Shown here one piece after another: positions 10,906-42,975 of a DNA stretch of 45,499 nt. Under the pieces are notes generated by a model. It worked only from the letters and a program-made list of their open reading frames with translations. It was not told the origin of the DNA and ran no database searches. The DNA comes from Candidatus Humicultor tengchongensis. Its GTDB lineage: Bacteria; Sysuimicrobiota; Sysuimicrobiia; Sysuimicrobiales; Humicultoraceae. The stretch lies in contig JAVKIA010000019.1 of NCBI GenBank assembly GCA_031459715.1, positions 1 through 45,499 of the forward strand, read 5' to 3'. A program made the position numbers and the translations under genes. Numbering within the stretch: position 1 is the stretch's first letter; the number at the start of each line of letters is the position of its first letter.

Positions 10906-10957
10906 GCCGGGCCCCCGGGGTCATGGTCCCATTCTACACAACTCGGTCCAGGAAGGC

Positions 10958-11941
10958 TCAGTAGGCCGCCAGATGGCGCATGGCTGCGGCGATGCGGGCC
11001 TGGTCGATGTAGAACCACTCCTCCAGCGGCTTGCTGTAGGGAATGCCGGGCACGTCGGGCCCGGCCAGGCGCATAACCGGAGCGTCCAGGCTGTCGAAAG
11101 CCTCCTCGGCGATCAGGGCGGCGATCTCCGCGCCGTAGCCGCAGAACCGGTTGTCCTCGTAAACGATCAGCGCGCGGCTGGTCTTGGCCACGGAGGCCAG
11201 GATGGTGTTCTTGTCCAGCGGCTTGAGCGAGCGCACGTCCACCACCTCGGCGCTGATGCCCTCTGCCGCCACCACCTCCGCCGCCCGCAGCGCCTCGTGC
11301 AGCATCCAGCCGAAGGCGAAGACGGACAGGACGCTGCCCTCACGGCGCACCGCCGCGGGGCCGAGGGGCACCGTGTAGTCCCCCTCGGGGACCTCCCCCC
11401 GGACAATCCGGTAGGCGCGCTTGTGCTCCAGGAAAAGTACGGGGTCGGGGTCACGCACCGCGCTCTTGAGCATGCCCTTGGCGTCGTAGGGGGTAGACGG
11501 CGCCACCACCTTCAGCCCCGGGACGTGGGCGTAGAAGGACTCGACGGACTGGGAGTGATAGAGGGCCGTGCCGTGGGAGCCACCGTAGGGAGCACGGAAG
11601 ACCACCGGGCAGCCGTAGCTGCCGTTGGAACGGTAGCGCATCCGCGCCGCTTCGCTGACGATCTGGTTGAAGGCCGGGTGGATGAAGTCGGCAAACTGGA
11701 ACTCGGCGATGGGCAGCAGGCCGTTGGCGGCCATGCCGATGGCCACCCCGGCGATGGAGGACTCGGCCAGGGGGCTGTCGATGACCCGATCTTCTCCGAA
11801 CTTCTCGTACAACCCCATGGTCACACCGAAGACGCCGCCTTTACGGCCTACATCCTCCCCCAGGACAACCACGCGCTCGTCTCGAGCCATCTCCTCGTGG
11901 TGGGCCTGGTTCAGGGCATCGACGTAGCGCAGCTCAGGCAT
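10958..11941 (-). CDS. 2-oxoacid dehydrogenase E1 beta subunit
   Basis: 327 aa from ATG 11941 (MPELRYVDALNQAHHEEMARDERVVVLGEDVG...). The 143-codon upstream extension in the track ORF overlaps E1alpha out of frame and is rejected. Confidence 0.9.
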   Translation of the reverse strand: MPELRYVDALNQAHHEEMARDERVVVLGEDVGRKGGVFGVTMGLYEKFGEDRVIDSPLAESSIAGVAIGMAANGLLPIAEFQFADFIHPAFNQIVSEAARMRYRSNGSYGCPVVFRAPYGGSHGTALYHSQSVESFYAHVPGLKVVAPSTPYDAKGMLKSAVRDPDPVLFLEHKRAYRIVRGEVPEGDYTVPLGPAAVRREGSVLSVFAFGWMLHEALRAAEVVAAEGISAEVVDVRSLKPLDKNTILASVAKTSRALIVYEDNRFCGYGAEIAALIAEEAFDSLDAPVMRLAGPDVPGIPYSKPLEEWFYIDQARIAAAMRHLAAY

Positions 11942-11946
11942 CGCCC

Positions 11947-13050
11947 TCACCCCCCCCACTTGCCGGCGGGAGACAGCCAGGGATGCGGCGGGTGTGGCCC
12001 GGGGATCTGGCCGTCGGGATCGTAGAACGCGGGGTCCCGCTGCGTGGCGAACAGGTGCTGCTCGGCAGTGGCGGGATCGGGGAGCGGCTCGGCCTCGGCG
12101 GCGTCGGTGGCCTCGTCGATCTCCCGCTTGATCCGGGCCATCAGAGCCTGATAGCGCTCTTCGGTGAGCAGGCCGACGCTCTCCAGATAGGCCCGGAAGG
12201 TCAACAGGGGATCGCGCTGGCGAGCAGCCTCGATCTCCTCCCTGGGGCGGTAGCGTTCCTGCTGGTCGTCGCTGGAGTGCGACCCCAGCCGCTGAACGCG
12301 GTACTCGATGAGCGTGGGGCCGTCCCCGCGCCTGGCCCGCTCGTGGGCCTCCTTGGCCACGCGGTAGCACTCCAGCACATCACTGCCGTCGGCCACCACA
12401 CCCGGCATTCCGTACCCGGCAGCACGGGCGGCGATGTTCTCCCCGGCTACCTGCTTGCGTAGCGGGACGGAGATCGCATAGAAGTTGTTCTCCACCACGA
12501 AGATCACCGGCAGCCTGTAGATCCCCGCCCAGTTCAACGATTCGTGCCAGTCGCCCTGGCTGGTACCGCCGTCACCGATGGCCACCATGGTGATCTCGCC
12601 GGTCCTGCGCAGCTTCGCCGCGTAGGCGATGCCCACAGCATGAGGGTACTGGGTGCCCACGGGGCTGCTGGTGGAGAGGATCTTCAGGCGGGGGTGGCTG
12701 TAGTGGCCGGGCATCTGGCGGCCGCCGCTGCTGGGGTCGGTGGCGCGGGCAAACAGCCCCAGCAGCATCTCCCTGGGCGTCATCCCCTTGACCAGGCAGG
12801 CGGCCACCGACCGGTAGAAGGGCACGAACCAGTCACGCTGCCGGTCCATTGCCCACATGGCTCCCACCTGGCAGCCCTCGTGCCCGGGCCCGGAGATGAC
12901 GAACATGGCCTTGCCTGCCCGCTGCAGGACCCACATGCGGTCGTCCAGCGCCCGGGCCAGAGCGATGTAGTAGTACATGTCCAGCACGTCCTGGTCGCTC
13001 AGACCCAGGGCTGCGTGGCGGGCTGCAGTCCTGGTCTCGTGCAACACCAT
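11947..13050 (-). CDS. 2-oxoacid (2-oxoisovalerate-type) dehydrogenase E1 alpha subunit
   Basis: 367 aa with the TPP-binding motif GDGGTSQGDWHESLNWAGIYRLPVIFVVENN. Its size and sequence resemble heterotetrameric BCKDH-type E1alpha. Confidence 0.88.
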   Translation of the reverse strand: MVLHETRTAARHAALGLSDQDVLDMYYYIALARALDDRMWVLQRAGKAMFVISGPGHEGCQVGAMWAMDRQRDWFVPFYRSVAACLVKGMTPREMLLGLFARATDPSSGGRQMPGHYSHPRLKILSTSSPVGTQYPHAVGIAYAAKLRRTGEITMVAIGDGGTSQGDWHESLNWAGIYRLPVIFVVENNFYAISVPLRKQVAGENIAARAAGYGMPGVVADGSDVLECYRVAKEAHERARRGDGPTLIEYRVQRLGSHSSDDQQERYRPREEIEAARQRDPLLTFRAYLESVGLLTEERYQALMARIKREIDEATDAAEAEPLPDPATAEQHLFATQRDPAFYDPDGQIPGPHPPHPWLSPAGKWGG

Positions 13051-13063
13051 ACGGCTCCCCCCG

Positions 13064-14461
13064 TCAGATGTGAATGGCCCGGCCCAGCGCGTCCAGGGCC
13101 GCTTCCTTCAGCGCCTCGGCCAGGGTGGGGTGCGAGTGCACGGCGCGCCCCAGCTCATAGACGGTCCCCTCCAGGGATCTGACCGCGACGCCCTCCGCCA
13201 GCAGCTCCGTGACGCCGAACCCGACCATGTGTATGCCCAGAATCTCCCCCACCCGGGCGTCGGCCACCACCTTCACCAGCCCCTCGGTGGCGTCCTCGAT
13301 GGTAGCCTTGGAGTTGGCCTGGAAGGGGAAGCGCCCCACCCTCACCTCGCGGCCGCTCTCCCTGGCCTGCTGCTCGCTCAGCCCCATGGTGGCCACCTGG
13401 GGGATGGAGAACGTCGGCCGGGGGATGGCCTGGTAGTCGATGGACGGAGGCGAGGCTCCGGCGATGGACTCGGCCACAAACACCGCCTCCTCGGAGGCCA
13501 CGTGCGCCAGGCGGAAGGGTCGCCCCAGGACGTCCCCGATGCCGAAGATGGTCGGGGTGGCCGTGCGCAGGTTCGCGTCCACCTGCACCGCCCCCTGCTC
13601 GATCACCACCCCCGCCTCCTCCACAGCCAGCTCCCGATAGACCGGAGCCCGCCCCACCGCCACCAGCAGGTAGTCCGCGGCGATGGTGGTGGTCTGGTCG
13701 CCTTTGCGCAGGGTGATGGCCAACCCGTCGCCGCGGTACTCGACGCGCTCCGCCGTCGACTCCGTGTGCACCTGGATCCCGCGCCGCTCGAAAGACCGCT
13801 GCAGCTGCCGGCCGATCTCCTCGTCCTCCAAAGGCAGCAGCGTCGGCAGCAGCTCCACCAGCGTCACCTCGGCTCCGAAGGCGCGGAAGACGCTGGCCAT
13901 CTCCACCCCTACCGGCCCGGCACCCAGGATGGCGATGGCCCGCGGCACCTCCTTCAGGTCCAGCGCCGCGGTGCTGTCGATGATGCGCCGGTTGTCAATG
14001 GCAATCCCCGGGACGCTTCGTGGCGCGGAACCGGTGGCGATCATGAAGTGCTTCCCCCGCAGCGCGGTCTCCGACCCGTCCGCCAGGGCCACCGCCACCT
14101 CGGTCCTGCTCAGGAAGCGGGCCTCCCCGTGGAAGACGTCGACCCGGTTCTTGCGCAGCAGGTACTGGGTGCCCTTGTAGAGTTTCTCCACCACGCGCCG
14201 CTTCCTGGCGTGCACCGCGGCCAGGTCCACAGCCAGGTCACCGGTGGCGATCCCCAGGTCCCGGCCCCGGCGCAGCTCGTCCAGGACCCCGGCCACGTAG
14301 AGCAGCGCCTTGGTGGGGATGCAGCCGTAGTGCAGGCAGGTGCCGCCCACCTTGTCCCGCTCCACCACCGCCGTGCGCAGTCCAAGCTGCGCGGCGCGGA
14401 TGGCCCCCACGTAGCCGCCCGGTCCTGCGCCGATGACCACCAGGTCATAGGGTTCGGGCAT
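13064..14461 (-). CDS. lpd: Dihydrolipoyl dehydrogenase (E3)
   Basis: 465 aa with FAD motif GAGPGGY, the redox disulfide GGTCLHYGCIPTK, an NAD Rossmann GAGPVGVE and C-terminal HSHPTLAE. Confidence 0.95.
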   Translation of the reverse strand: MPEPYDLVVIGAGPGGYVGAIRAAQLGLRTAVVERDKVGGTCLHYGCIPTKALLYVAGVLDELRRGRDLGIATGDLAVDLAAVHARKRRVVEKLYKGTQYLLRKNRVDVFHGEARFLSRTEVAVALADGSETALRGKHFMIATGSAPRSVPGIAIDNRRIIDSTAALDLKEVPRAIAILGAGPVGVEMASVFRAFGAEVTLVELLPTLLPLEDEEIGRQLQRSFERRGIQVHTESTAERVEYRGDGLAITLRKGDQTTTIAADYLLVAVGRAPVYRELAVEEAGVVIEQGAVQVDANLRTATPTIFGIGDVLGRPFRLAHVASEEAVFVAESIAGASPPSIDYQAIPRPTFSIPQVATMGLSEQQARESGREVRVGRFPFQANSKATIEDATEGLVKVVADARVGEILGIHMVGFGVTELLAEGVAVRSLEGTVYELGRAVHSHPTLAEALKEAALDALGRAIHI

Positions 14462-20550: not shown

Positions 20551-22248
20551 TTACCTGCCCCCTGTGGTCACCGCTCCCTCAGAAGCCGAAGAGACCAGGC
20601 GGGCGTACTTCGCCAGCGCCGGGCCCGGGGCAGGGCGCACGGGCGGACGCCGCTCCCGCAGCCGCTGTGCCAGCACCTCCTCCGGGAGCTCCACCGCCAG
20701 GCGGCGGGCAGGCACGTCGATCGTGATCAGGTCGCCGTCCTGCACCGCGGCGATCGGACCGCCCACGGCGGCCTCCGGGGTGACGTGGCCCACCATCAGC
20801 CCGTGCGTGGCCCCGGAGAAGCGGCCGTCGGTCACCAGGGCCACCGCATCCCCCAGCCCCGCTCCCACCAGCGCGCCCGTCACCGCCAGCATCTCCCGCA
20901 TCCCGGGGCCCCCCACCGGGCCCTCGTAGCGGATCACCACCACATCCCCGGGCCGGATGGTCCCTGCGCCCACCGCGACGAAGGCTTCCTCCTCGCTGTC
21001 GAAGACGCGCGCCGGCCCGCGGTGGCTGGTACGCTCGTGCCCCACCAGCTTGACCACGCACCCCTGGGGCGCCAGGTTTCCCCGCAGGATGGCGAACCCT
21101 CCGCTGGCCCGGAGCGGTGCCGCCAGGGGGCGCACTACCTCCTGCCCCGGCGTCTCGGGAGCGTCGGAGACCTCTTCGGCCAGGGTACGCATGGTCACGG
21201 TGAGGGTCCGGGGGTGGAGCAGGCCCCCCTCCAGCAGCCGCCGCGCCAGCAGGCGCACGCCCCCGGCCCGGTGCAGGTCCGTGGCCACGAAGCGGCCGCC
21301 GGGCTTCAGGTCCGCCAGAACCGGGGTGCGCGCGCTGATGGTGTCGAAGTCTTGTAGTTCGAGCGGCACGTCCGCTTCCCGCGCCACGGCCAGAAGGTGC
21401 AGCACCGCGTTGGTGGAGCCGCCGCTTGCGGCCACCGAGGCTATGGCGTTCTCCAGGGCCGCCCGGGTGACTATCTGCCGCGGACGGACTCCGTTACGCA
21501 CCAGGGCCACGGCCAGGCGCCCCGCCGCCCGGGCCAGCTCGTCCCTGGCCGGATCCAGCGCGGGGACGGTGCAGCTTCCCATGGGAGAGATCCCCAGCAC
21601 CTCGAAGGCGATGGCCATAGTGTTGGCGGTGAACTGCCCGCCGCAGGCCCCCGCCCCGGGGCAGGCCTGCGCCTCCAGCTCGGCCAGGTCGGCGGCGCCG
21701 ATGGCACCCCGCTGGTAGGCGCCCACCGCCTCGAAGACGTCCTGGATGGTCACCGCCCTGCCGCGGAACTGGCCGGGGGCGATGGAGCCTCCGTAGAGCA
21801 TCAACCCCGGCAGGTCGAGCCGCGCCAGGGCCATCACTGCCGCGGGGATGGTCTTGTCGCATCCCGTGATCGCCACCAGTCCGTCCAGCAGGTGGCCGCG
21901 GGCCACCAGCTCAATAGAGTCGGCGATGACCTCGCGGCTGACCAGGGAGGCGCGCATCCCTGCTGTCCCCATAGAGACCCCGTCGGAGATGGCTATGGTG
22001 TTGAACTCCACCGGAGTCCCTCCGGCCTCGCGGATGCCCGCCTTCACCTGTGCGGCCAGGTGACGGTGGTGGTAGTTGCAGGGCATGACCTCGATCCAGG
22101 AGTGGGCCACCCCGATCAGCGGACGGCGGAAGTCCTCGTCCCGGTAGCCCACCGCCCGCAGCATGGCCCGGGCCGGAGCCCGCTCCGGCCCGTCCAGCAG
22201 CGTCCGGCTGTTAGTGCGCGGATCCACTACGCTCTCGTCCCCGCTCAC
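20551..22248 (-). CDS. ilvD: Dihydroxy-acid dehydratase
   Basis: 565 aa from GTG 22248, overlapping the leuB stop (GTGA): ...[25 protein letters not shown]...[15 protein letters not shown]... The 293-codon upstream extension of the track ORF is a shadow over leuB. Confidence 0.93.
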
Positions 22249-23378
22249 TGCCCTCCACCTCCTTCCCGCACCATGGCGGCGATGCGCTCGCCCACCTGCA
22301 TGGTGGTCGCCTCCCCACCGAGGTCGGGGGTGCGCACCCCTGCGGCCAGTACGCGGGATGTCGCCTCCTCCACCAGAGCCGCCTCCTCCTCCAGGCCGCA
22401 GGAATAGCGCAGCAGCAGCGCCGCGCTCAGGATCGCCCCCACCGGGTTGGCCACCTGCCGTCCGGCGATGTCGGGGGCGGAGCCGTGCACCGGCTCGTAG
22501 AGCGCCGGCGGGCGCGCTCCCAGGCTGGCCGACGGCAGCAGGCCCACCGACCCCACCACTCCCGCGGCCTCGTCGCTCAGGATGTCGCCGAACATGTTCT
22601 CCGTGAGCAGCACGTCGAACTGCTGCGGGGCGCGCACCAGCTCCATGGCCGCGGTGTCTACCAGCATGTGCCGCAACGCCACGTCGGGAAAGGCGCGGGC
22701 TTCCTCCTGCACTACCGCCCGCCACAGCTGGGAGCTGGCCAGCACGTTGGCCTTGTCCACCGACGTCACCTGCCCCCGCCGCGTCCGCGCCTGCTGGAAG
22801 GCCACACGGGCCACGCGGGCAACTTCCTCGCGCCCGTAGCGCAGGGTGTCCACCGCCTGGTCCCCCGTCCGGCCGCGTGGCTCCCCAAAGTAGAGTCCCC
22901 CGGTGAGCTCGCGCACGATCACCAGGTCCATCCCGGCGGCGCGCTCGGGGCGCAGCGGCGAGACCTCCGCTGCTCCGGGAAAGACCCGCGCCGGACGGAG
23001 GTTGGCGAACACCCCCAGGGCCCGGCGCAGCGCCAGCAGGCCGCGCTCGGGACGCCGCTCGGAGGGCAGGTCGTCCCACTGCGGCCCACCCACAGCGCCC
23101 AGGAAGACGGCCTCCGCCGCCGCGCACGCCTGCAGGGTCTGCCGGGGCAGGGGCTCACCAGTGGCCTCCAGGGCGGCGCCGCCTATCAGCCCCTCGCTGA
23201 AGTGAAACCGCAGGCCGCGCCGCGCCTCCACCGCACGCAGGACGCGCACGGCCTCCGCGGTGACCTCGGGCCCGATCCCGTCCCCGGGCAGGAGCAGGAT
23301 CCGGTACCAGGCATTCCGGTTGCCGGATGCAGAGGGCCGAGCGCTGCCGGGGCGGCCTAGAAGATCTCCTGGATGCAC
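22245..23378 (-). CDS. leuB: 3-isopropylmalate dehydrogenase
   Basis: Reads ...[14 protein letters not shown]... with typical IMDH features. The only in-frame start candidate upstream of the conserved N-terminus is GTG 23378. That gives a ~24-aa extension and a 22-nt overlap with leuD. The start is uncertain. Confidence 0.88.
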
Positions 23379-24001
23379 TCCGCCAGCCAGCGGACCTCCT
23401 CCCCGCCCCCCGGCCGCACCGCACCGCCCGCCCCCAGGCTCTCCACAGCGCCGCCGCCCGGGCCGCCGCGCTGCAGCACCGCCCGCACGTAGCCCACCAG
23501 GCCCCCGCTGGCCAGCAGCCGCTGCATGAATTCGGGCACGGGCGTGGCGGGGTAGGTCTCGTCTCTGGTCAGGTTGACGATGCGCCCCCGCTGCAGGTCG
23601 CAGAGCAGCTCGTCCCCGTCCCGCACCCGGTCGCGGGCCTTGGGCGACTCCAGCAGGGGCAACCCGATGTTGAAGGCGTTGCGGTAGAAGATGCGGGCAA
23701 AGGAGCGGGCCACGATTGCGCCCACCCCCAGCGCCCGGATGGCTATGGGGGCGTGCTCGCGGCTACTGCCCTGGCCGAAGTTCTCGCCGGCCACCAGGAT
23801 GTCGCCGGGACGGATGCGCTCCCGTAGCGTGGGATCCAGGTCCTCGAAGACGTACCGCGCCAGCTCCCGGGGATCGCTGGTCACCAGGTAGCGGGCCGGT
23901 ATGAGCACGTCGGTGTCGATGTGGTCGCCCAGGGTGTGGGCCCGTCCGCGCACCTGCAGGGAGCCGCCGGCACCGGCGTCGTCTCTCCCGGCCCCGCTCA
24001 T
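23357..24001 (-). CDS. leuD: 3-isopropylmalate dehydratase small subunit
   Basis: 214 aa from ATG 24001, overlapping the leuC stop (ATGA). It has the GENFGQGSSREHA swivel-domain motif and a Gly-rich C-terminal extension of about 40 aa. Confidence 0.9.
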   Translation of the reverse strand: MSGAGRDDAGAGGSLQVRGRAHTLGDHIDTDVLIPARYLVTSDPRELARYVFEDLDPTLRERIRPGDILVAGENFGQGSSREHAPIAIRALGVGAIVARSFARIFYRNAFNIGLPLLESPKARDRVRDGDELLCDLQRGRIVNLTRDETYPATPVPEFMQRLLASGGLVGYVRAVLQRGGPGGGAVESLGAGGAVRPGGGEEVRWLAECIQEIF

Positions 24002-25278
24002 ACCGGCACCGCCTCCCGCACAACTTCGTCGGGGTGGGCCAGACAACCCCGCACCGCGGAGGCCGCGGCCACCGCCGCGTTGGCCAGGTAGACCCGGCTG
24101 CCCCGGTGCCCCATCCGCCCGATGAAGTTGCGGCTGCTGGTGGAGACGCACACCTCGCCTTCCGCCAGCACCCCCATGTGCCCGCCGATGCAGGGCCCAC
24201 AGGTGGAAGTGCTGACTGCGGCGCCCGCTTCCAGGAAGACCTGGATCAGCCCTTCCTCCAGCGCCTGGCGGTAGATGCCGGGGGTGGCGGGGATGACCAG
24301 CAGCCGCGTCTGTGGGTGCACCCGCCGCCCGGCCAGGACGCGGGCGGCCAGCCGCAGGTCCTCCATCCGCCCGTTGGTGCAGGTGCCGATGAAGCACTGG
24401 TCGACGCGGATCCCGGCCGCCTCGCGCACGGGGACCACGTTGCCGGGCGAGGAGGGCGCGGCCACCAGCGGCTCCAGACGGGAGACGTCGTAGCGGCGCA
24501 CCTCCGCGTAGGTGGCGGCCGGGTCCCGGTGGTGCACGGTGAAAGGACGGCGGGCGCGGGGTCGGATCCAGGCCAGCACCGTCTCGTCGGCCTCCATGAT
24601 GCCGTTCTTCGCACCGGCCTCCACCGCCATGTTGGTGATGGAGAAGCGCTCGTCCATGGTCAACTGCCCCAGGGCCTCGCCGGCGAACTCCATGGCGGCG
24701 TAACGGGCGCCGTCCACCCCGATGTCGCCTATGACCCGCAGGATCAGGTCCTTGCCGGTGACCCAGGGCTGCAGCCGCCCGGCGAAGAGGTAGAGCACCG
24801 TCTCCGGGACGCGCAGCCACAGGCGGCCCAGGGCCATGGCCGCGGCCAGGTCCGAGGAGCCCACCCCGGTGGCGAAGGCACCCAGCGCCCCGTGATTGCA
24901 GGTGTGGGAGTCGGCCCCCAGAAAGACGTCGCCTGGGCCGACGAACCCCTCCTCGGCCAGAAGGACGTGGGCCACCCCGGTGCGCCCTATGTCGTAAAAG
25001 TGGGGCAAGCGGTGGCGGCGCACGAAGGCCCGCGTCACCGCGCACTGCTGGGCGGAGGCGATGTCCCTGGCCGGGACGTAGTGGTCGAAGACGAAGGCCA
25101 CCCGGTCCGGGTCAAAGACCCGCTCCGCGCCCATGCGCTCGAACTCCTGGATGGCCAGCGGGGCGGTGATGTCGTTGGCGAAGACGAAGTCCACGCGCGC
25201 CTCGATCAGGTCCCCCGGGCGCACGGTGGCCGCCCCCGCATGGGCGGCCAGGATCTGCTCGGTCAGGGTCAGCCCCAC
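23998..25278 (-). CDS. leuC: 3-isopropylmalate dehydratase large subunit
   Basis: 426 aa, aconitase family, with Fe-S ligand regions GTCTNGR and STCGPCIGGHMG. Confidence 0.93.
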   Translation of the reverse strand: MGLTLTEQILAAHAGAATVRPGDLIEARVDFVFANDITAPLAIQEFERMGAERVFDPDRVAFVFDHYVPARDIASAQQCAVTRAFVRRHRLPHFYDIGRTGVAHVLLAEEGFVGPGDVFLGADSHTCNHGALGAFATGVGSSDLAAAMALGRLWLRVPETVLYLFAGRLQPWVTGKDLILRVIGDIGVDGARYAAMEFAGEALGQLTMDERFSITNMAVEAGAKNGIMEADETVLAWIRPRARRPFTVHHRDPAATYAEVRRYDVSRLEPLVAAPSSPGNVVPVREAAGIRVDQCFIGTCTNGRMEDLRLAARVLAGRRVHPQTRLLVIPATPGIYRQALEEGLIQVFLEAGAAVSTSTCGPCIGGHMGVLAEGEVCVSTSSRNFIGRMGHRGSRVYLANAAVAAASAVRGCLAHPDEVVREAVPV

Positions 25279-25287
25279 CGCCGGACC

Positions 25288-26463
25288 TCAGGAGCGCACG
25301 CCGCCAGCGGCGCTGTGCACCTCCCTGGCCAGCGCCACCAACTCCTCCACGGTCACCCGCTTGCGCCGGTCGGCCAGTGCCTTGAAGGCGGCGAAGGCCC
25401 GCTCCAGCGCCTCCTCCGGCAGGTGCACCCCCTGCTGGGCCAGGACGTGAGCGAAGGCGTGCCGGCCGGAGTGCTTGCCCATCACCAGCCTGGTGGCCGG
25501 CACCCCCACGTCCTCGGGCCGCATGATCTCGTAGGTCAGAGGGTTGACGATCACCCCGTGCTGGTGGATGCCGGCCTCGTGGGCGAAGGCATTGGCACCC
25601 ACGATGGCCTTGTTGGGCGGTACGGCGACCCCGGTGATCGCCTCCAGCGTGCGGCTGGCTCCGTAGATTCCCTGCGTCCGGACGCCGACCTCCACCCCGA
25701 AGACGTCGCGGCGCACCACCAGCGCCATGACCACCTCCTCCAGGGCGGCGTTGCCGGCGCGTTCCCCGATTCCGTTGACGGTGCACTCCACCTGCCGGGC
25801 GCCGGCCTGCACCGCCGCCAGGGAGTTGGCCACGGCCAGCCCCAGGTCGTCGTGGCAGTGGACGCTTACCGTCACCCCATCGATCCCGGGAACCTCCGCC
25901 CGCACCCGGCGCACCAGGGCGGCGAACTGGTCGGGCGTGGCATACCCCACGGTGTCGGGGATGTTGATGGTCGTGGCCCCTGCAGCCACGGCGGCGGCGA
26001 AGACCCGGATGAGGAAGTCCGGATCGGACCGGCTGGCGTCTTCCGCGGAGAACTCCACCTCGGGAGCATAGCGGCGGGCGCGGCGGACCGCCGCTGCCGC
26101 ATCGGCCACCACCTCGTGGGGGGTCTTGCGCAGCTTGCTGCGCATGTGCACCTCAGAGGTGGCGATGAAGGTGTGGATGCGTGGCCGCTTAGCCCCCCGC
26201 AGCGCCTCCGCCGCGGCATCGATGTCCTCGGGGGCGGCGCGGGCCAGGGCGGCGATCACCGGGCCGCGCACCGCCCGGGCCACGGCGGCGACGGCCGCGC
26301 CGTCGCCCGGGGAGCTGGCGGGGAAGCCGGCCTCGATGACGTCCACCTGCAGCTCCGCCAGCGCCCGGGCCATGGCCACCTTCTCCTCAAGGGTCATGGA
26401 GAAGCCGGGCGACTGCTCTCCATCGCGCAGCGTGGTATCGAAGATGGCGACGCGGTCGGCCAC
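25288..26463 (-). CDS. leuA: 2-isopropylmalate synthase-family enzyme, short form lacking the C-terminal LeuA regulatory domain
   Basis: 391 aa with DRE-TIM motifs [13 protein letters not shown] and [13 protein letters not shown]. It ends shortly after ...[20 protein letters not shown], where full-length LeuA continues into a ~130-aa regulatory domain. leuC starts 10 nt downstream. Confidence 0.8.
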
Positions 26464-26468
26464 GGTGG

Positions 26469-27596
26469 CTACCTCCCCGCGGGGGCGCGCGCAGATGCCG
26501 CCGCACCCGGGGAAGGGGCGGCGGCAGGCTCGCCCGATGCTGAAGCCACAGCGGCGGCGGCCCGTTCGCCGGGACCCGGAGACGGTGCAGCGCCGGGGAC
26601 CTCTACCCGGCGCAGCCAGGGCATCATGGCCCGCAGGCGGCGGCCCACCTCCTCAATGGGGTGGCGTGCCTCCTCCGCCCGGCGGGCCTCCAGGACCGGG
26701 CGCCCGGCCTGGTTCTCCAGGATCCACTCCCGGGCGAAGGTGCCGTCCTGCACCTCGCGCAGCAGACGGCGCATCTCCTGCCGCGTGGCCTCCGTGATGA
26801 TCCGCCGCCCGCGGGTCAGGTCCCCGTACTCGGCGGTGTTACTCACCGAGTAGCGCATCCAGGCCAGCCCCCCCTCGTAGAGCAGGTCCACGATCAGCTT
26901 CAGTTCGTTGAGGCACTCGAAGTAGGCGATCTCCGGCTGGTAGCCCGCCTCCACCAGGGTGTCGAAGCCCGCCTTGATCAGCTCGGTCACCCCGCCGCAG
27001 AGGACAGCCTGTTCGCCGAAGAGGTCGCTCTCCACCTCCTCGCGGAAGGTGGTCTCGATGACACCGGCCCTGGTGCAGCCGATGCCGCGGGCGTAGGCCA
27101 GGGCCAGCGCCTGCGCGCTCCCGGTGGCGTCCTGGTGCACGGCCAGCAGCGCGGGGACGCTTCCCCCTTCCGCAAACATCCGCCGCAGGAGGTGACCGGG
27201 TGCCTTGGGGGCCACCATGAAAACGTCCACGTCGGGCGGGGGGACTACCTGGTGAAAGTGGACGGCAAACCCGTGGGAGAACCCCAGGGCCTGACCGCCG
27301 CGCAGGCGGGGAGCAATCTCCTCGCGGAACACCTGCCCCTGGCGCTCGTCGGGGATGAGGACCTGCACCAGGTCCGCCTCCGCCACTGCCTCGGACACCG
27401 TGCGCACGCGGAACCCGTCGGCCTCCGCCCGGGCCCAGGAGCGGCTGCCGCGGAAGAGGGCCACCGTCACCTGCACGCCGTTGTCGCGCAGGTTCTGCGC
27501 CTGGGCGTGCCCCTGGCTGCCGTACCCCACCACCGCCACCCGCCGCCCCTCCAGGGGTGCCAGGCTGGCGGCGTCGTCGTAGTAGATCCTGGCCAT
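26469..27596 (-). CDS. ilvC: Ketol-acid reductoisomerase (class I)
   Basis: 375 aa with [19 protein letters not shown] and a strong AAGGAGG Shine-Dalgarno. It has an Ala/Pro-rich C-terminal extension of about 45 aa. Confidence 0.93.
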
Positions 27597-27654
27597 AGGC
27601 CTCTCCTCCTTAAACCGGGTTAACGTGATCTGCGCCTCCCGGGCGGCCCGGCTC

Positions 27655-28185
27655 CTACGTGGTCTGCGACCCCCGGGCCAGGGCCACCCGCCCCGTGCGC
27701 ACCATCTCCCGGATGCCGTGCCTGCGCAGCAGCGCCTGCAGGGCGTCGATCTTGTCCGGCTTGCCGCTGACTTCCACCACCACAGTGTGTTCGCCCACGT
27801 CCACCACCCGGGCGCGGAAGATCTGGGCCACGTGCAGTACCTCTTGGCGCGTGCCCGGGGTGACGCTGACCTTGATCAGGGCCAGCTCCCGCTCCACCGT
27901 GTCGCAGCCGGTGAGGTCGTGGACGCGGCGCACCTCCAGGATCTTGTTCAGGTTCTTCACCACCTGCTCCGCCTGCTCGTCTCCCTCCAGGACCACCAGC
28001 ATGCGGGAGATCCGCCGGTCGTCGGTCACCCCTACGGAGAGGCTGTGGATGTTGTAGCCGCGGCGGCGGATCAGCCCGGCAATCTTGGCCAGCACGCCGG
28101 GGCTGTTCTCCACCAGCAGCGAAATGCTGCGGACCGTAGTCGGAGGCTGGCCGTTGGGCTGCCGCCGGATGCGGGCGCCATCCAT
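27655..28185 (-). CDS. ilvN: Acetolactate synthase small (regulatory) subunit
   Basis: 176 aa from ATG 28185, which overlaps the last base of the ilvB stop. It has an ACT domain ([31 protein letters not shown]). The 211-codon upstream extension of the track ORF is rejected. Confidence 0.9.
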
Positions 28186-29978
28186 CACTCCAGAATCATC
28201 TCCTTCACCGACTGCCCGGAGGGGATCATCGGGAAGCAGTTCTCCTGGGGGTCCACCAGGACGTCCAGCACCACAGGCACATCCGACACCTGCAGCGCCC
28301 AGGCCACCGCGTCCTCCACCTCCTCGGGGCGGCGCACGGTGCGCCCCGCGGCGCCGAAGACCTGGGCCAGCCGGGCGAAGTCGGGGTTCTGCAGCATGAC
28401 GTGGGAGTAGCGCTGGCGGTAGAAGAGCTGCTGCCACTGCCGCACCATGCCCAGGGAGCCGTTGTTGATGATGACCACCTTCACCGGGAGGCGCCACTCC
28501 ACCGCCGTGATCAGGTCCTGCAGCGTCATCTGGAACCCACCGTCGCCCACCAGCGCCACCACCGTGCGCTGCGGGCAGGCCAGCTGCGCCCCTATGGCTG
28601 CAGGGAAGCCGAACCCCATGGCCCCCAGGCCGCCGGAGCTGATGAAGGTGCGGGGCTCGCGGCAGCGGTAGAACTGCGCCGCCCACATCTGGTGCTGGCC
28701 CACATCCGTGACCACGATGGCCCTTTCCTGGGTGAGGCGGGCTACGGTCTCGCAGACGAACTGGGGCTTGATCACCTGGTCGCCCTGGCGGTAGCGCAGC
28801 GGGTAGCGCTCTCGCCACTCCTGGATCTGGCGCAGCCAGGGCTCGATCTGCGGCGGAGCCGTGATGCGCTCCACCAGGGCCGCCAGCACCAGCTTCGCGT
28901 CGCCCACGATGGGGATGTGCGCCGGCTTGTTCTTACCGATCTCCGCCGGGTCGATGTCGATGTGGATGAAGCGGGCGCGGGGGGCGAAGTCCGCCAGGCG
29001 CCCGGTCACGCGGTCGTCGAAGCGCACCCCCACCGCCAGGATCAGGTCGGCCTCGTTAATGGCGTAGTTGGCATACGCGGTGCCGTGCATCCCCAGCATG
29101 CCCAGACAACGGGGATGGTGCTCGTCGATGGCACCTTTGCCCATCAGGGTCACGGTGACGGGGATCCCCGTGCGCTCCACCAGGCGGGTCAGCTCCGCGG
29201 AGGCCCCCGCGGAGATCACCCCGCCGCCGGCATAGATAATGGGCCGCTCTGCTCCCTGCAGGGCCTCGGCCGCGGCGGCGATCTGGGCGGCGTTGCCCTC
29301 GCGGTGAGGGCGGTAGCGAGCGGTCACGTCTTCCACGGGGCGGGGGACGACCCGGGCCTGGGCCACATCGCGCGGCACGTCCACCAGCACCGGCCCCGGC
29401 CGGCCCGCGGCGGCCACGTAGAAGGCTTCGGCGATGGCCCGGGGCAGGTCGGCGGCATCCCAGACCTGGTAGGCGTGCTTGGTCACCGGCATGGTGATGC
29501 CGATGACGTCGGCCTCCTGGAAGGCGTCCCTCCCGATGACCGCGGTGGGCACCTGGCCGGTGATGGCCACCACCGGCACCGAATCCATGTGGGCGTCGGT
29601 CAGGCCGGTGACCAGGTTGGTGGCTCCCGGCCCGGAGGTGGCCATGCACACCCCCACCCGCCCCGAGGCCCGGGCGTAACCCACTGCTGCGTGGGCGGCC
29701 ACCTGCTCATGGCGAACCAGGACGTGCCGCAGGTCGGCGGCGTCGTAGAGGGCATCATAGATGGGTAACGAGGCGCCGCCGGGTATGCCAAAGATCACCG
29801 CAGCACCGGCCTGACGCAGGGCCTCGACCAGGAGCTCGGCCCCGGACCGGGTGACCTCCCGCCCGGTTGGGGCCAGCTCGCCTCGGGAGCGGCCCAATCG
29901 CGAACGGATTGCTGCCCGCGAGCCAGCCCCGTCTCCTGAGGGTGTGCGCCTGCCTGTGCGGGATGCGGTTACCGTCAT
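28185..29978 (-). CDS. ilvB: Acetolactate synthase large subunit
   Basis: 597 aa from ATG 29978 with GGAGGG 6 nt upstream. It is a TPP enzyme (...GIPGGASLPIYDAL..., ...LVGDGGFQMTLQDL...). The track start 30089 lies inside the T-box terminator region and is rejected. Confidence 0.92.
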   Translation of the reverse strand: MTVTASRTGRRTPSGDGAGSRAAIRSRLGRSRGELAPTGREVTRSGAELLVEALRQAGAAVIFGIPGGASLPIYDALYDAADLRHVLVRHEQVAAHAAVGYARASGRVGVCMATSGPGATNLVTGLTDAHMDSVPVVAITGQVPTAVIGRDAFQEADVIGITMPVTKHAYQVWDAADLPRAIAEAFYVAAAGRPGPVLVDVPRDVAQARVVPRPVEDVTARYRPHREGNAAQIAAAAEALQGAERPIIYAGGGVISAGASAELTRLVERTGIPVTVTLMGKGAIDEHHPRCLGMLGMHGTAYANYAINEADLILAVGVRFDDRVTGRLADFAPRARFIHIDIDPAEIGKNKPAHIPIVGDAKLVLAALVERITAPPQIEPWLRQIQEWRERYPLRYRQGDQVIKPQFVCETVARLTQERAIVVTDVGQHQMWAAQFYRCREPRTFISSGGLGAMGFGFPAAIGAQLACPQRTVVALVGDGGFQMTLQDLITAVEWRLPVKVVIINNGSLGMVRQWQQLFYRQRYSHVMLQNPDFARLAQVFGAAGRTVRRPEEVEDAVAWALQVSDVPVVLDVLVDPQENCFPMIPSGQSVKEMILE

Positions 29979-29994
29979 GCTCTGCCCTCCGGTG

Positions 29995-30290
29995 AAAACA
30001 AAATGAGCCACCCGTAAGGACGGGCAGCTCCCGTGGTACCACCTTACTTCCGGGGCCCAGAGGGGCGGGGCGGAGATCGCACCGCACATCGCGTGCGGGC
30101 CCGGCCCTGCCCGGAGACCCGGAACTCTTTGCCCGCTATCGGGGGCGAGGACGGCGGAACCTAGTCCCGGGGGACGTCGGTCCCGCGGCTCGGGGACGAG
30201 TTCGTGCGGTCACCGCGGCGGCCAGCTCCCACCTGCCCTGGCTCTCTCCACGCCGCGCGCCGCCTACTGCTTCCCCTCATCGCCGATAAA
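29995..30290 (-). promoter_or_regulatory. T-box riboswitch with Leu specifier CUC and an intrinsic terminator
   Basis: Minus-strand RNA features, in order:
- GA/K-turn GCGAUGAGGGG...CCCCGAGCC.
- AGUA on the 5' side of the specifier loop.
- AG bulge GGAGAGAGCC.
- Distal loop GGUGGGAG.
- Specifier loop ACGAA-CUC-G (CUC at 30200..30198).
- T-box core AAGGUGGUACCACGG (30045..30031).
- Competing segments ACGGG / CCCGU / ACGGG, giving terminator GCCCGUCCUUACGGGU followed by GGCUCAUUUUGUUUU. Confidence 0.8.
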
Positions 30291-30319
30291 GCCATAAAGC
30301 CGGCCGGGCCGTCAAGCAC

Positions 30320-30460
30320 GAAAGCCTGAGGCGACAGATTTCACGAGGAACCTCCCCCTCAGGCTTCTGTCCTGACGGCGTAGCGGCGACCGGTGCACCG
30401 CCTGCGCCGCTTGGTCCAGACCGGTCCCGGATGGGGACCGCGGAACCCTAGGCGCACTTC
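30320..30460 (-). promoter_or_regulatory. ykkC-family (subtype-2-like; ppGpp class suspected from gene context) riboswitch aptamer plus terminator-like expression platform
   Basis: The minus-strand RNA reads GCGCCUAGGGUUCCGCGGUCCCCAUCCGGGACCGGUCUGGACCAAGCGGCGCAGG...ACGCCGUCAGGACAGAAGCCUGAGGGGGAG. AAGCCUGAGG (30366..30357) can re-pair with CCUCAGGCUU (30331..30322), which is followed by UCGUGCUU. The architecture matches the CUAGGGUUCCG...ACG-hairpin-GAG ykkC fold. Confidence 0.7.
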
Positions 30461-30498
30461 CTCGATCGACCAGCCAAACTCCTATGGACTTGCCGCAA

Positions 30499-30528
30499 AC
30501 GCTAGCAGAGCGCGGAGCTGTTTGTCAA
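30499..30528 (-). promoter_or_regulatory. Putative promoter of the ilv-leu operon leader
   Basis: Minus strand reads TTGACA-N18-TAGCGT. The -35 hexamer overlaps the gltB stop codon (30525..30527). Confidence 0.45.
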
Positions 30529-35088: not shown

Positions 35089-35300
35089 GAAGCCCGAGGG
35101 CGAGGCACCCACCGGACTGTGCACTCCGGCGAGTGCGAACCTCTCCCTCGGGCTTCTCTCCCGATGGTAGACCGGCCGACCCCACCCGATCCGCTCAGGA
35201 ACCAGACCGGGGAACTGTCGGTATTTCGCTGCCGGCCTGCGCCGCTTGAACCAGGCCTTCCCCTGGTGGAGGAAGCGGAACCCTAGGCGCCTCTCGCGCC
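35089..35300 (-). promoter_or_regulatory. Second ykkC-family (subtype-2-like) riboswitch with expression platform, upstream of gltB
   Basis: The minus-strand RNA reads GCGCCUAGGGUUCCGCUUCCUCCACCAGGGGAAGGCCUGGUUCAAGCGGCGCAGG...(insert of about 65 nt)...ACCAUCGGGAGAGAAGCCCGAGGGAGAG. GAAGCCCGAGGG (35156..35145) is perfectly complementary to CCCUCGGGCUUC (35100..35089). A TTGACA lies at 35350..35345, about 58 nt upstream of the aptamer. Confidence 0.7.
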
Positions 35301-41499: not shown

Positions 41500-42975
41500 A
41501 TGGCCAAGGCCAGTTTGCGTCCTGCGACGCTCAAACCGACCACAGCCGCGGAGGTGCTGGAGCTGTGCCAGGGGACCGTGGAGGTGCGGGAGCGGCAGCG
41601 GGTGGAGGTGGTCGACCTGCGCTTCGTGGACCTGCTGGGCGCCTGGCAGCACTTCTCCATCCCGGCGGGTGAGCTGAGCGAGGAGCTGTTTGCGGAAGGC
41701 ATCGGGTTCGACGGGTCCAGCATCCGCGGCTTCCAGCACATCCACGAGAGCGACATGCTCCTCCTCCCCGACCCGACCACCGCGCGCATCGACCCCCTGG
41801 GCGATCCTCCCACCCTGGCCATCATCTGCAACGTGGTCGACCCCATCACCCGAGAACCCTACACCCGGGACGCCCGGTTCGTGGCCCAGAAGGCGGAGCG
41901 CTACCTGCGGGCCTCAGGTATCGCCGAAGTCAGCTACTGGGGGCCGGAGGTGGAGTTCTTCGTCTTCGACGACGTGCGCTTCGACCAGAACCAGCACTCC
42001 GGCTACTACTACCTGGATTCCATGGAGGGCGCCTGGAACACCGGGCGGGAGGAGAAGCCCAACCTGGGCTACAAGCCGCGGTACAAGGAGGGCTACTTTC
42101 CCGTCCCGCCCACCGACTCCCTGCAGCCCCTGCGCTCGCGCATGGTCCGCCGCCTGCTGGAGGCCGGCCTGGAGGTGGAGGCGCACCACCACGAGGTGGG
42201 CAGCGGCGGGCAGTGCGAGATCGACCTGCGCTTTACCTCCCTCACCGAGATGGGCGACCGCGTCCTCTGGTACAAGTACGTCGTGCGCAACGTGGCCCGG
42301 GCCGCGGGCAAGGTCGTCACCTTCATGCCCAAGCCGCTGTTTGGAGACAACGGCTCGGGGATGCACACCCACCAGAGCCTGTGGGCGGCGGGCGCCAACC
42401 TGTTCTTCGACCCCCGCGGCTACGCCCAGCTCAGCGAGCTGGCCATGTACTACATCGGGGGGCTGATCAGGCATACCCCGGCCCTGCTGGCCTTCTGCGC
42501 CCCCACCACCAACTCGTACCGCCGCCTGGTACCCGGCTACGAGGCGCCGGTGAACCTGGCCTACGCCCAGCGCAACCGCAGCGCCTGCATCCGCATCCCC
42601 GTCTACTCCGCCAGCCCGGGGGCCAAGCGCATCGAGTACCGCTGCCCCGACCCCACCTGCAACCCCTACCTGGCCTTTGCCGCCATGCTCATGGCCGGCC
42701 TGGACGGCATCGAGCAGCGGATAGACCCCGGGGCGCCCATGGACGTGGACCTGTACGAACTGGCCAGCGGCAACGGCGGCGCGGTCCCGCAGGTGCCTGC
42801 CTCACTCCCCGAGGTGCTGGATGCCCTGGAGGCCGACCACGACTTCCTCCTGCGCGGCGAGGTCTTCACCGAAGACCTCATCCACGCCTGGATCGCCTAC
42901 AAGCGCCACAAGGAGGTGGACGCGGTGCGGCTGCGGCCCCACCCGTGGGAGTTCGCCCTGTACTTTGACGCCTGA
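41500..42975 (+). CDS. glnA: Glutamine synthetase type I
   Basis: 491 aa: ...VDLRFVDLLGAWQHFSIP...FDGSSIRGF...; ...MPKPLFGDNGSGMHTHQSLW...; ...NSYRRLVPGYEAP... The start lies 3 nt after the flotillin stop, with GGGGAGG upstream. Confidence 0.95.
   Translation: MAKASLRPATLKPTTAAEVLELCQGTVEVRERQRVEVVDLRFVDLLGAWQHFSIPAGELSEELFAEGIGFDGSSIRGFQHIHESDMLLLPDPTTARIDPLGDPPTLAIICNVVDPITREPYTRDARFVAQKAERYLRASGIAEVSYWGPEVEFFVFDDVRFDQNQHSGYYYLDSMEGAWNTGREEKPNLGYKPRYKEGYFPVPPTDSLQPLRSRMVRRLLEAGLEVEAHHHEVGSGGQCEIDLRFTSLTEMGDRVLWYKYVVRNVARAAGKVVTFMPKPLFGDNGSGMHTHQSLWAAGANLFFDPRGYAQLSELAMYYIGGLIRHTPALLAFCAPTTNSYRRLVPGYEAPVNLAYAQRNRSACIRIPVYSASPGAKRIEYRCPDPTCNPYLAFAAMLMAGLDGIEQRIDPGAPMDVDLYELASGNGGAVPQVPASLPEVLDALEADHDFLLRGEVFTEDLIHAWIAYKRHKEVDAVRLRPHPWEFALYFDA

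Follow-up and report, generated by a model that had tools for sequence, protein, structure and literature searches.

A predicted ppGpp-class riboswitch and leucine T-box in tandem upstream of the ilv-leu operon of a hot-spring CSP1-3 genome

The leader and the operon downstream

The DNA analyzed here, referred to as the window, is a stretch of 45,499 nucleotides from a hot-spring MAG of the candidate phylum CSP1-3 (Sysuimicrobiota). On the minus strand, the region between the gltB stop codon and the ilvB start contains a promoter-like site, a ykkC subtype-2a aptamer followed by a terminator, a T-box followed by its own terminator, and then the operon. A first-pass annotation, made from the nucleotide sequence without database searches, had placed a ykkC aptamer and a T-box on this strand; both were found there, and the sequence details that it quoted are all present. 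A second, divergent aptamer is located in the gltB leader. The features are as follows, with the basis of the main calls in parentheses.

35132..35299, minus strand: divergent ykkC subtype-2 aptamer in the gltB leader (Rfam, model R1)
30499..30528, minus strand: promoter-like site, TTGACA at 30528..30523, 18 nt, TAGCGT at 30504..30499 (conservation only)
30342..30465, minus strand: ykkC subtype-2a (ppGpp-class) aptamer (Rfam RF00442, models R1 and R2, minimum-free-energy fold, covariation)
30463..30458 with 30350..30345, minus strand: P0, GAGGAA with UUCCUC (sequence, fold)
30456..30451 with 30408..30403, minus strand: P1
30451..30441, minus strand: core CUAGGGUUCCG
30410 and 30409, minus strand: subtype marker G30410-C30409 (AAGC)
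30402..30382, minus strand: P2
30381..30378, minus strand: J2/3, ACGC
30379, minus strand: second A of J2/3 changed to G (alignment, sister lineages, second assembly)
30378..30355, minus strand: P3, with bulge A30359
30354..30351, minus strand: 4-nt linker GAGG between P3 and P0
30312..30366, minus strand: riboswitch expression platform, terminator arms AAGCCUGAGG (30366..30357) and CCUCAGGCUU (30331..30322), tail UCGUGCUUGA (30321..30312) (direct reading, ViennaRNA folds)
30013..30289, minus strand: T-box leader, RF00230 (Rfam, orthologues, RNAalifold)
30284..30186, minus strand: Stem I with GA/K-turn, AGUA...GAA specifier loop, AGAGA bulge and GGUGGGA distal loop
30200..30198, minus strand: specifier CUC, then G
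30185..30132, minus strand: Stem II and F-box-like CCGAUA
30124..30118 and 30054..30048, minus strand: Stem III arms, separated by an insert of about 65 nt
30049..30014, minus strand: T-box sequence and antiterminator, UGGU at 30041..30038
29995..30030, minus strand: T-box terminator, 11-bp stem GAGCUGCCCGU/ACGGGUGGCUC with loop CCUU (30030..30005), then AUUUUGUUUU (30004..29995) (terminator scan)
20551..29990, minus strand: putatively regulated operon ilvB-ilvN-ilvC-leuA-leuC-leuD-leuB-ilvD (NCBIfam, synteny)

The operon consists of the eight BCAA genes that had been read from the sequence. A Shine-Dalgarno sequence, GGAGG (29990..29986), precedes the ilvB ATG at 29978; ilvB occupies 29978..28185 and ilvD ends at 20551. 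Seven of the eight genes were matched by NCBIfam. The remaining one, leuC, was assigned by synteny and by the Pfam Aconitase match of its 426-aa orthologue in relatives L121 and L122. The leuA product (391 aa) has no C-terminal regulatory domain. The gene order of the operon is alike in relatives, and the order promoter, aptamer, terminator, T-box and ilvB is kept in nine of them, with IlvB identities of 69-91%.

The -35 hexamer of the promoter-like site abuts the gltB stop codon. The arrangement TTGACA-N17/18-TAGNNT is also found upstream of the aptamer in L121, L123, L125 and L132. A consensus promoter scan did not call the site in the leader because its -10 hexamer matches at just three of six positions. 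Two other candidates were discarded. A possible internal promoter between aptamer and T-box (TTGACG, near 30316) lacks an acceptable -10 hexamer and is not retained in L121, and the sole AUG-initiated frame of the leader, considered as a leucine-rich leader peptide, contains no run of Leu codons and lacks its AUG in L121.

The aptamer, the T-box and their terminators

An Rfam search of the whole window at gathering thresholds returned no matches. At E-value thresholds, the Guanidine-I/ykkC family (RF00442) matched 30462..30353 with 58.8 bits against a gathering score of 63 (E 8e-10 when calculated for the region and 5e-8 for the whole window; model positions 1-107 aligned). Since the Rfam search gave no match to a separate ppGpp or PRPP family, assigning a subtype required home-made models. 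R1, a covariance model trained on 23 subtype-2a aptamers of verified context, scored 30465..30342 at 108.1 bits (E 2e-28). Sequences of subtype 2b reach 70-100 bits on R1, which by itself cannot separate the two subtypes; therefore, a 2b model, R2, whose set was verified upstream of purL, purE and purC, was used together with the score difference. R2 gave the aptamer 79.1 bits, 29 below R1. The difference R1 minus R2 was +18 to +22 bits for held-out 2a controls and -14 to -28 bits for 2b sequences, values that are somewhat inflated as each model includes relatives of its own class.

The minimum-free-energy fold of the aptamer reproduces the four-way junction, with P1, P1a, P1b, P2 and P3 around the core CUAGGGUUCCG and GGNCC. 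Across 23 relatives, 91.5% of cells are paired, compared to at most 47% with slid partners, and 19 pairs have changed on both sides; the P0 pair at columns 7/126 varies between AU and GC. The aptamer had been marked at 30455..30352. Its location was right, and its extent is larger (30465..30342) because P0 joins the segments on either side. P0 is closed by A30458 and the unpaired G30457 precedes P1, as expected of subtype 2a. When the published numbering is mapped by motif, not by alignment to the crystallized RNAs, C30409 replaces the guanidine-I adenine (A46/C49 position) beside the pocket G, a mark of subtype 2. The P3 bulge, CCUG-A-GGGG, has A30359 and not G, again as in 2a. Linkers of ppGpp aptamers are purine-rich and 4-5 nt long, (A)NARG, or NAGG in the ppGpp-preferring ones; the linker found here is of the NAGG type. 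Genes associated with this class are those for BCAA, glutamate synthase or natA, and here a BCAA operon is located downstream and a second aptamer at gltB. Taken together, these characters support an assignment to ykkC subtype 2a, grouping the putative riboswitch with the BCAA/glutamate synthase aptamers and not with the purine (PRPP) ones. The subtype-2 fold proposed in the first-pass annotation is borne out by C30409 and P0, and subtype 2a by the P3 bulge, the model scores and the sister aptamer. Inspection of the subtype-discriminating positions, which it had recommended, showed that C30409, A30359, P0 and the linker fit 2a and that J2/3, which it had overlooked, reads ACGC.

The 5′ arm of the first terminator is made of the end of the P3 loop, the 3′ strand of P3 and the bulge, so the terminator and ligand-bound P3 are mutually exclusive. 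This competition agrees with the ON-switch logic suggested earlier. ViennaRNA folded the same hairpin in the window and in eight of nine relatives; per-sequence folds were used, and pair counts on a MAFFT alignment abandoned, because indels shift the register between lineages. The pairing of AAGCCUGAGG with CCUCAGGCUU was as predicted, but the helix is followed by a poor U tract, UUUCGUGCUU, as compared to UUUUGUGUUU in L132 and UUUCGUUUUU in L121 (five U in nine positions versus seven in nine in L121). Just UUUCGUGCU comes after the stem, and a simple terminator scan left this terminator uncalled.

The T-box was matched by RF00230 over the full model (1-219) with 45.4 bits (bias 26.8, E 1e-8), short of the gathering score of 93 that is exceeded by the orthologous leaders of L005, L126, L125 and L017 (98-106 bits). 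The low score is explained by the Stem III insert of about 65 nt; L121 and L132 have the same long insert and also score low. The covariance-model check proposed for the two elements therefore produced significant E-values, with scores below the Rfam gathering scores in both cases. Stem I includes GAUGA/CGA, AGCAGUA...GAA-CUC-G, GGAGAGAGCC and AGGUGGGAGC, and RNAalifold recovered 26 Stem I pairs, six of them with both sides changed. The specifier CUC is invariant in 14 leaders, in which its flanks vary. The frames AAC and ACU were rejected, as in distant leaders solely CUC and the helix-adjoining purine are constant. The T-box sequence, AAGUAAGGUGGUACCACGG, is part of an antiterminator with a 7-nt UGGN bulge that is the RNAalifold consensus fold of nine leaders and includes a C-G/G-C swap. 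UGGU would pair with the A73 discriminator of tRNA-Leu. A tRNA scan of the window found no tRNA gene, tRNA-Leu included. The antiterminator and the intrinsic terminator are mutually exclusive, and when ten relatives were folded, nine gave the equivalent terminator hairpin as their minimum-free-energy structure; in L005 it is interrupted. The Leu(CUC) T-box is thus present as annotated, with its UGGU bulge and a clean terminator, whose 11-bp stem was also found independently by the terminator scan.

These features suggest how the leader may work. Transcription would start a few bases past the TAGCGT hexamer. With (p)ppGpp bound, P0 and P3 would be held, the arm AAGCCUGAGG would be unavailable, and the polymerase would continue; without the ligand, AAGCCUGAGG would pair with CCUCAGGCUU and transcription would tend to stop. 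In the second unit, the specifier CUC would read the anticodon of tRNA-Leu(GAG). If this tRNA is uncharged, its NCCA end would pair with UGGU and stabilize the antiterminator; otherwise the 11-bp terminator would form directly before the ribosome-binding site of ilvB. As the polymerase would meet the two terminators one after the other, ilvBNC-leuACDB-ilvD would be fully expressed only when the general alarmone of starvation coincides with a lack of charged tRNA-Leu in particular, a behavior that approximates an AND gate. The analysis shows the folds and their homology, the subtype markers, the covariation, the competing helices, the genes of the operon and the conservation of the arrangement in the CSP1-3 phylum; we infer the transcription start, the binding of the ligand, the efficiency of termination and this AND logic. 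We consider it probable that the leader is a two-input transcription attenuator with its units in tandem, as in the published ppGpp riboswitch/T box(Leu) leaders.

Changes in the ligand pocket and alternative readings

In the conserved J2/3 sequence ACAC, the first C pairs with the ligand guanine, and the 3′-phosphate site is lined by the A and the C that follow it; in crystal structures, this second A contacts the G that binds the 3′ diphosphate. In the ACGC of the ilvB aptamer, the guanine-pairing C is kept and the second A is G. Of 135 aligned subtype-2 aptamers, 134 have A at the position of 30379 and the window's ilvB aptamer has the sole G; all sister lineages (L121, L129, L130, L131 and L132) have A. 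A sequencing error was discarded as the source of ACGC because an independent MAG assembly (L135, GCA_031458955.1) has the identical base. Binding of ppGpp by this copy may consequently be weakened and is less certain than the architecture suggests. Confidence in the ancestry of the aptamer is not lowered, since the near-identical aptamers of the sister lineages have ACAC. With ACGC and the weak first U tract, the alarmone input may be blunted, and the T-box may do most of the work.

The gltB aptamer, which belongs to the same regulon logic as the ilv leader, was detected by RF00442 (42.8 bits, E 2e-4) and by R1 (54.3 bits, E 2e-13). Its J2/3 reads CUAC, with U in place of the C that pairs with the ligand guanine, and a U is also found at this position in the gltB aptamer of a sister lineage, L132; the gltB copies of L129 and L133 have CAC where these two have UAC. 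In vitro, a C-to-U change at the guanine-pairing position re-targets the aptamer to adenine nucleotides. This background, and the G of the ilvB copy at an otherwise invariant A adjoining the 3′-diphosphate site, raise the idea that the ykkC-2a aptamers of the CSP1-3 lineage changed ligand rather than decayed, which we regard as very improbable. If these RNAs are functional, the gltB copy would become the first candidate in nature for a riboswitch that senses (p)ppApp or a pAp-like adenine alarmone, and the ilv leader would combine a modified alarmone input with tRNA-Leu.

Other explanations were considered. The architecture could be as described with the A-to-G change abolishing or greatly weakening (p)ppGpp binding, so that essentially the T-box alone regulates; two U-to-C changes would then have weakened the first terminator, and the operon would not be permanently off. 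Several observations agree with this reading. G30379 is the sole exception among the aligned aptamers, and sister lineages with IlvB about 90% identical keep the A. In published work, changing one conserved pocket base lowered the affinity at least 1000-fold, and an aptamer missing part of ACAC failed to bind. The U tract is UUUCGUGCUU where L132 and L121 have UUUUGUGUUU and UUUCGUUUUU, and the second aptamer of the genome likewise has a damaged J2/3. However, besides G30379, the aptamer differs from that of L132 in a loop, a bulge and a pair-preserving site, so few differences that general decay is not indicated; the terminator stem is intact, and poor U tracts occur in L017 and Desulfitobacterium hafniense as well. 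We judge the loss of the alarmone input unlikely, while giving it some weight.

The J2/3 change might instead retune specificity, for example to pGpp, pppGpp or another phosphorylated nucleotide, in which case the first signal would differ. Published ykkC aptamers switch ligand by a single substitution (G96A is a 40,000-fold switch, and C-to-U turns G ligands into A ligands), the altered adenine adjoins the 3′-phosphate site, and at least two assemblies have the variant fixed. Nonetheless, it is confined to one species-level lineage, the rest of the pocket, including the guanine-pairing C, is unaltered, as is the gene context, and the two aptamers of the genome have changed differently, unlike in a coordinated switch. 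Retuning therefore appears very improbable. We find it scarcely credible that the aptamer is of a different ykkC class (guanidine-I, PRPP, ADP/CDP or subtype 2d) or resembles ykkC by chance, even though Guanidine-I is its sole Rfam family match and the 2a and 2b models cross-score strongly, with 2b sequences at the bit scores given above. Guanidine-I is contradicted by C30409, which replaces the defining adenine, by A30359, where that class has a G in the P3 S-turn that pairs with the J2/3 C, and by a score under that family's gathering score. PRPP aptamers have a G conserved in more than 97% of cases (published) where the P3 bulge has A30359, and the 2a model is ahead of the 2b model. The operon downstream makes BCAAs and contains neither purine biosynthesis genes nor the guanidine carboxylase or efflux genes typical of guanidine-I. 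Chance is excluded by E-values of 1e-8 to 1e-28 and by the conserved synteny. The tandem of a ppGpp-class aptamer and a leucine T-box remains our preferred reading.

Comparison with known systems

As judged from sequence, the leader is a new example of a published design. About 40% of BCAA-associated ppGpp riboswitches are in tandem with a leucine T box, an arrangement for which AND logic was proposed (Sherlock, Sudarsan & Breaker 2018, PMC6003355); the first-pass annotation had mentioned such tandems, and this is the report that describes them. The same study describes the co-occurrence with an aptamer on glutamate synthase genes that is seen here at gltB (Sherlock 2018, PMC6003355). A later catalogue lists 31 tandems, 15 with the ppGpp riboswitch before the T box and 16 with the T box first (Sherlock et al. 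2022, PMC9481103). The published tandem matches the window in its two elements and their order, in the separate intrinsic terminator of each, in the BCAA biosynthesis genes downstream and in the presence of another ppGpp-class aptamer, on glutamate synthase, in the genome. The class was described as predominantly one of Firmicutes, whereas the window comes from a CSP1-3/Sysuimicrobiota MAG, and the window differs in having ACGC for ACAC, a weak first U tract and the Stem III insert.

The ilvE riboswitch of D. hafniense, in which P3 is the antiterminator, responds to ppGpp in in vitro transcription termination. It resembles the first unit of the window in the competition between P3 and a downstream terminator, in being an ON switch and in its interrupted U run. 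Unlike the window, it was studied as a single riboswitch, and it has the canonical ACAC and a Firmicute-type P3 (CCGUGGGU...ACCCGAGCGG). [quoted passage not shown] Its leader, in contrast to that of the window, has no ppGpp riboswitch. In B. subtilis, the GTP/alarmone state is sensed via CodY and the identity of the initiating nucleotide. The PRPP riboswitch (ykkC 2b, also known in guanine/PRPP tandems) is nearly identical in fold and shares P0, ACAC and the linker, which is of the UAGG type in Armatimonadota/CSP1-3 aptamers too. It has a P3 bulge of 2-3 nt with a conserved G and is located upstream of purL, purE and purC, whereas the window's aptamer has a single A, and R2 scores it 29 bits below R1.

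The tandem architecture as such adds nothing new, as the ppGpp/T box(Leu) AND gate has been known since 2018. The whole arrangement, including the gltB partner riboswitch, is conserved across an uncultivated, non-Firmicute phylum, CSP1-3/Sysuimicrobiota, a GC-rich lineage in which Rfam gathering thresholds miss both elements, so that routine annotation is silent on them. The two positions of the ligand pocket that are most invariant in ykkC subtype 2 also each have a natural single-base variant in this lineage, and these variants would be cheap and informative substrates for binding assays against the sister-lineage sequence. Compared to the known systems, the newness is modest and consists of the host phylum and the ACGC J2/3.

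Organization of the leader and its operon

The intergenic region from the gltB stop codon (30527..30525) to the ilvB ATG (29978) spans 550 nt on the minus strand and holds all elements of the leader:

30528..30499, minus: promoter-like TTGACA-N18-TAGCGT
30465..30342, minus: ykkC-type aptamer
30366..30357 and 30331..30322, minus: riboswitch hairpin, AAGCCUGAGG pairing with CCUCAGGCUU, then UCGUGCUUGA
30289..30013, minus: T-box leader
30030..30005, minus: 11-bp terminator with AUUUUGUUUU
29990..29986, minus: GGAGG upstream of the ilvB ATG (29978)

The genes gltB and hom precede the leader, and the operon that follows consists of ilvB, ilvN, ilvC, a short leuA, leuC, leuD, leuB and ilvD, ending at 20551. 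NCBIfam matches were obtained for seven of the eight genes; leuC was identified by synteny and by a Pfam Aconitase match on the 426-aa orthologue in relatives. The coordinates and matches show that the first-pass annotation had described the leader elements and downstream genes accurately. The leuA product (25288..26463, minus; 391 aa) aligns to positions 4-384 of a 516-position profile and therefore lacks the C-terminal LeuA_dimer domain, the mediator of leucine feedback. The short form is shared by the related loci L121 (392 aa) and L123 (406 aa), and L127 and L128 carry the full 515-aa form with PF08502. The surroundings (7220..8404, 9577..14461, 41500..42975) are rich in nitrogen and branched-chain amino acid (BCAA) metabolism genes, and nearby genes include a BCAA ABC-transporter substrate-binding protein, a 2-oxoacid dehydrogenase complex (E1 beta, E2, E3), glnA, gltB and hom. 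Upstream of these genes, nothing more of the ykkC or T-box type was found.

In the first terminator, the 5′ arm takes in the P3 3′ strand together with the bulge and the last part of the P3 loop; therefore, the terminator and a ligand-stabilised P3/P0 would be mutually exclusive. These competing helices, read from the sequence, agree with the ON-switch logic proposed initially, and the same terminator-versus-P3 design was shown to work in D. hafniense ilvE. The riboswitch hairpin is the minimum-free-energy structure in the window and in eight of nine relatives. Its terminator tail is weak in the window (UUUCGUGCU, 5 U in 9; the equivalents are UUUCGUUUU in L121 and UUUUGUGUU in L132), and a simple terminator scan of the window did not call this terminator. 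The same scan called the second one, an 11-bp stem, as strong, in keeping with its earlier description as clean. All canonical T-box parts are present. Among the specifier loops of 14 leaders spanning several phyla, no triplet except CUC, followed by a purine, is constant, and UGGU would match the A73 discriminator of tRNA-Leu; the reading as a Leu(CUC) T-box is upheld. Two independent terminators in series would yield the product of two read-through probabilities, approximating an AND gate for the alarmone and uncharged tRNA-Leu. This two-input interpretation, in which ligand binding, termination and transcription start are predicted, is supported by a matching published tandem architecture.

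Rfam scores and aptamer subtype

At the curated gathering scores, Rfam gave no matches in the whole 45.5-kb window, so default thresholds report neither RNA element of the leader. A rerun with E-value reporting returned three matches: Guanidine-I/ykkC at 30462..30353 (58.8 bits against a gathering score of 63; regional E 8e-10, window-wide E 5e-8), the T-box at its full model length (45.4 bits, gathering score 93; E 1e-8) and a second ykkC match upstream of gltB. Both leader elements are thus significant by E-value but fall below their gathering scores. The shortfall is due to lineage and not to weak elements, because orthologous leaders of relatives score 98-106 bits with the T-box model and the window's closest relatives, which share its long Stem III insert, score as low (41-45 bits). 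The insert, found in the sub-clade of the window, L121 and L132, puts the Stem III arms of the window about 65 nt apart. The ykkC subtype-2 RNAs of relatives score 56-68 bits, on both sides of the Guanidine-I threshold.

An alignment of 23 context-verified subtype-2a (ppGpp-class) aptamers was used for a home-made covariance model, R1, and 34 purine-associated aptamers for a 2b (PRPP-class) counterpart, R2. In the 23 aptamers, the P0-P1-P1a-P1b-P2-P3 structure has 91.5% of its cells paired, against at most 47% with the partners slid, and 19 of 34 pairs changed on both sides, e.g. G-C exchanged with A-U in P1b, and A-U with G-C in P0. The published subtype discriminators were read off the alignment.

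Subtype discriminators in the ilvB-leader aptamer
Guanidine-I-defining adenine: C (G30410-C30409)
P0 helix: present; a conserved A closes P0, then an unpaired G
P3 bulge: A30359, not the PRPP-defining G
P3-P0 linker: GAGG, fits NAGG

Covariance model scores (bits)
Window ilvB leader: R1 108.1; R2 79.1
Three BCAA-associated aptamers outside the R1 set: R1 86.7, 93.2, 94.3; R2 66.7, 70.8, 75.8

Purine-associated aptamers have the opposite preference, by 14-28 bits in favour of R2. The marker positions, the scores, the BCAA operon context and the partner aptamer on gltB firmly place the sequence in subtype 2a, refining the original ykkC subtype-2 reading.

Variants of the ligand pocket

In J2/3, the junction between P2 and P3 that lines the ligand pocket, the ilvB aptamer has ACGC instead of the ACAC of the other 2a and 2b aptamers examined (the gltB-leader copies of the window and its sister lineages deviate); this is its sole departure from the defining 2a features. 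Of 138 aligned subtype-2 RNAs, 135 have a residue at the third position; it is A in 134 of them and G only in the window (30379). All sister lineages (L121/L129, L130/L131/L132) have A. An assembly artefact was ruled out as the source, since G also stands in L135, a locus from an independent MAG with 2 mismatches to the window over 3794 positions. The rest of the aptamer is nearly identical to that of L132, differing at one loop base, one bulge base and a U-G/U-A site where pairing is kept; G30379 is therefore a single recent substitution and not general decay. In crystal structures, this J2/3 adenine contacts, in an A-minor-like manner, the G that binds the 3′ diphosphate through its Watson-Crick edge, and the 2′-OH of the adenine touches phosphates; mutations of conserved pocket bases lower the affinity by at least three orders of magnitude. 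Compared with L132, the terminator tail (30312..30321) reads C for U at two sites (UUUCGUGCUU vs UUUUGUGUUU). These and the A-to-G pocket change belong to the same lineage; each of the three is a transition that raises G+C, and the genome has 70% G+C.

The second aptamer is located in the gltB leader:

35299..35132, minus: second ykkC subtype-2 aptamer (Rfam 42.8 bits, R1 54.3 bits)

It keeps the fold, with a weak P0 and a P2 insert of ~52-75 nt (depending on the choice of P2 end), and has its own terminator (GCCCGAGGG/CCCUCGGGC, tail UUCGUGCAU). Its J2/3 is CUAC, with U in place of the C that pairs with the ppGpp guanine. Sherlock et al. found that C-to-U at this site confers adenine-ligand specificity in vitro, no natural example being known then. 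The sister gltB aptamers (L132 1199..1366, L129 576..745, L133 1093..1262) have UAC in L132, as in the window, and CAC in L129 and L133; the first A of ACAC is absent from all four, and the P3 bulge of the sister copies holds G in L133 and A otherwise. Since several pocket positions vary among close lineages, the pattern looks more like relaxed constraint than new specificity. The binding behaviour of gltB aptamers with a natural U at the guanine-pairing site is nevertheless of interest. No aptamer was found upstream of gltB in L134 (GltB 68% identical), and the gltB aptamer of Ca. Thermofontivivens (L023) is canonical.

Relatives and published tandem leaders

A subtype-2 core pattern scan of species-representative genomes yielded 120 loci, and tblastn with proteins of the window singled out the loci adjoining BCAA or glutamate synthase genes, several of which have a T-box up- or downstream. 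The PRPP class accounts for a large group that bears the tail CCCAGNCGGGUAGGUUUC and lies upstream of purL, purE and purC. Several genomes carry two subtype-2 aptamers a few kilobases apart (L033, at 659..772 and 3797..3911; L019, L051, L101, L109, L119, L026, L064, L067): a Sporomusa MAG has two 2a copies, and the Tissierellia have paired 2b copies. Multi-copy regulons of the gltB/ilvB kind are therefore common. The nearest IlvB homologues (91% identity, then 77-78%) come, where named, from MAGs labelled Armatimonadota. The exact protein also occurs in MAG GCA_031458955.1 (JZ-2_202007_bins_63), a hot-spring genome classified as p__CSP1-3, now Sysuimicrobiota, the phylum of Candidatus Thermofontivivens (L005/L023). 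Leaders were fetched from L121/L122, L123, L125, L126, L127 and L128, with further ones from the genome scan (L005, L017) and from a metagenome scan and GltB search (L129-L132); in all of them, a putative promoter is followed in the same order by the aptamer, a terminator, the Leu T-box and ilvB.

The tandem and the B. subtilis CUC specifier, both mentioned in the first-pass annotation, are published. Sherlock, Sudarsan and Breaker (2018; PMC6003355) reported a leucine T box directly up- or downstream of ~40% of BCAA-associated ppGpp riboswitches, each element with its own expression platform and together an AND gate, and pointed out the co-occurrence of a BCAA aptamer with a partner on gltB. 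A 2022 survey of tandem riboswitches (PMC9481103) lists 31, 15 as ppGpp-then-T box(Leu) and 16 in reverse order, and the CUC of the B. subtilis ilv-leu leader was described by Marta et al. (1996). A full-text search of a limited literature collection returned no paper that connects Armatimonadetes to riboswitches and T-boxes. The architecture of the leader is already published; it differs from the known ppGpp/T box(Leu) tandems in its host phylum (Sysuimicrobiota, whereas the published hosts are predominantly Firmicutes), its ACGC junction and its Stem III insert. Beyond the known architecture, the main point of interest is the natural variants of the ligand pocket.
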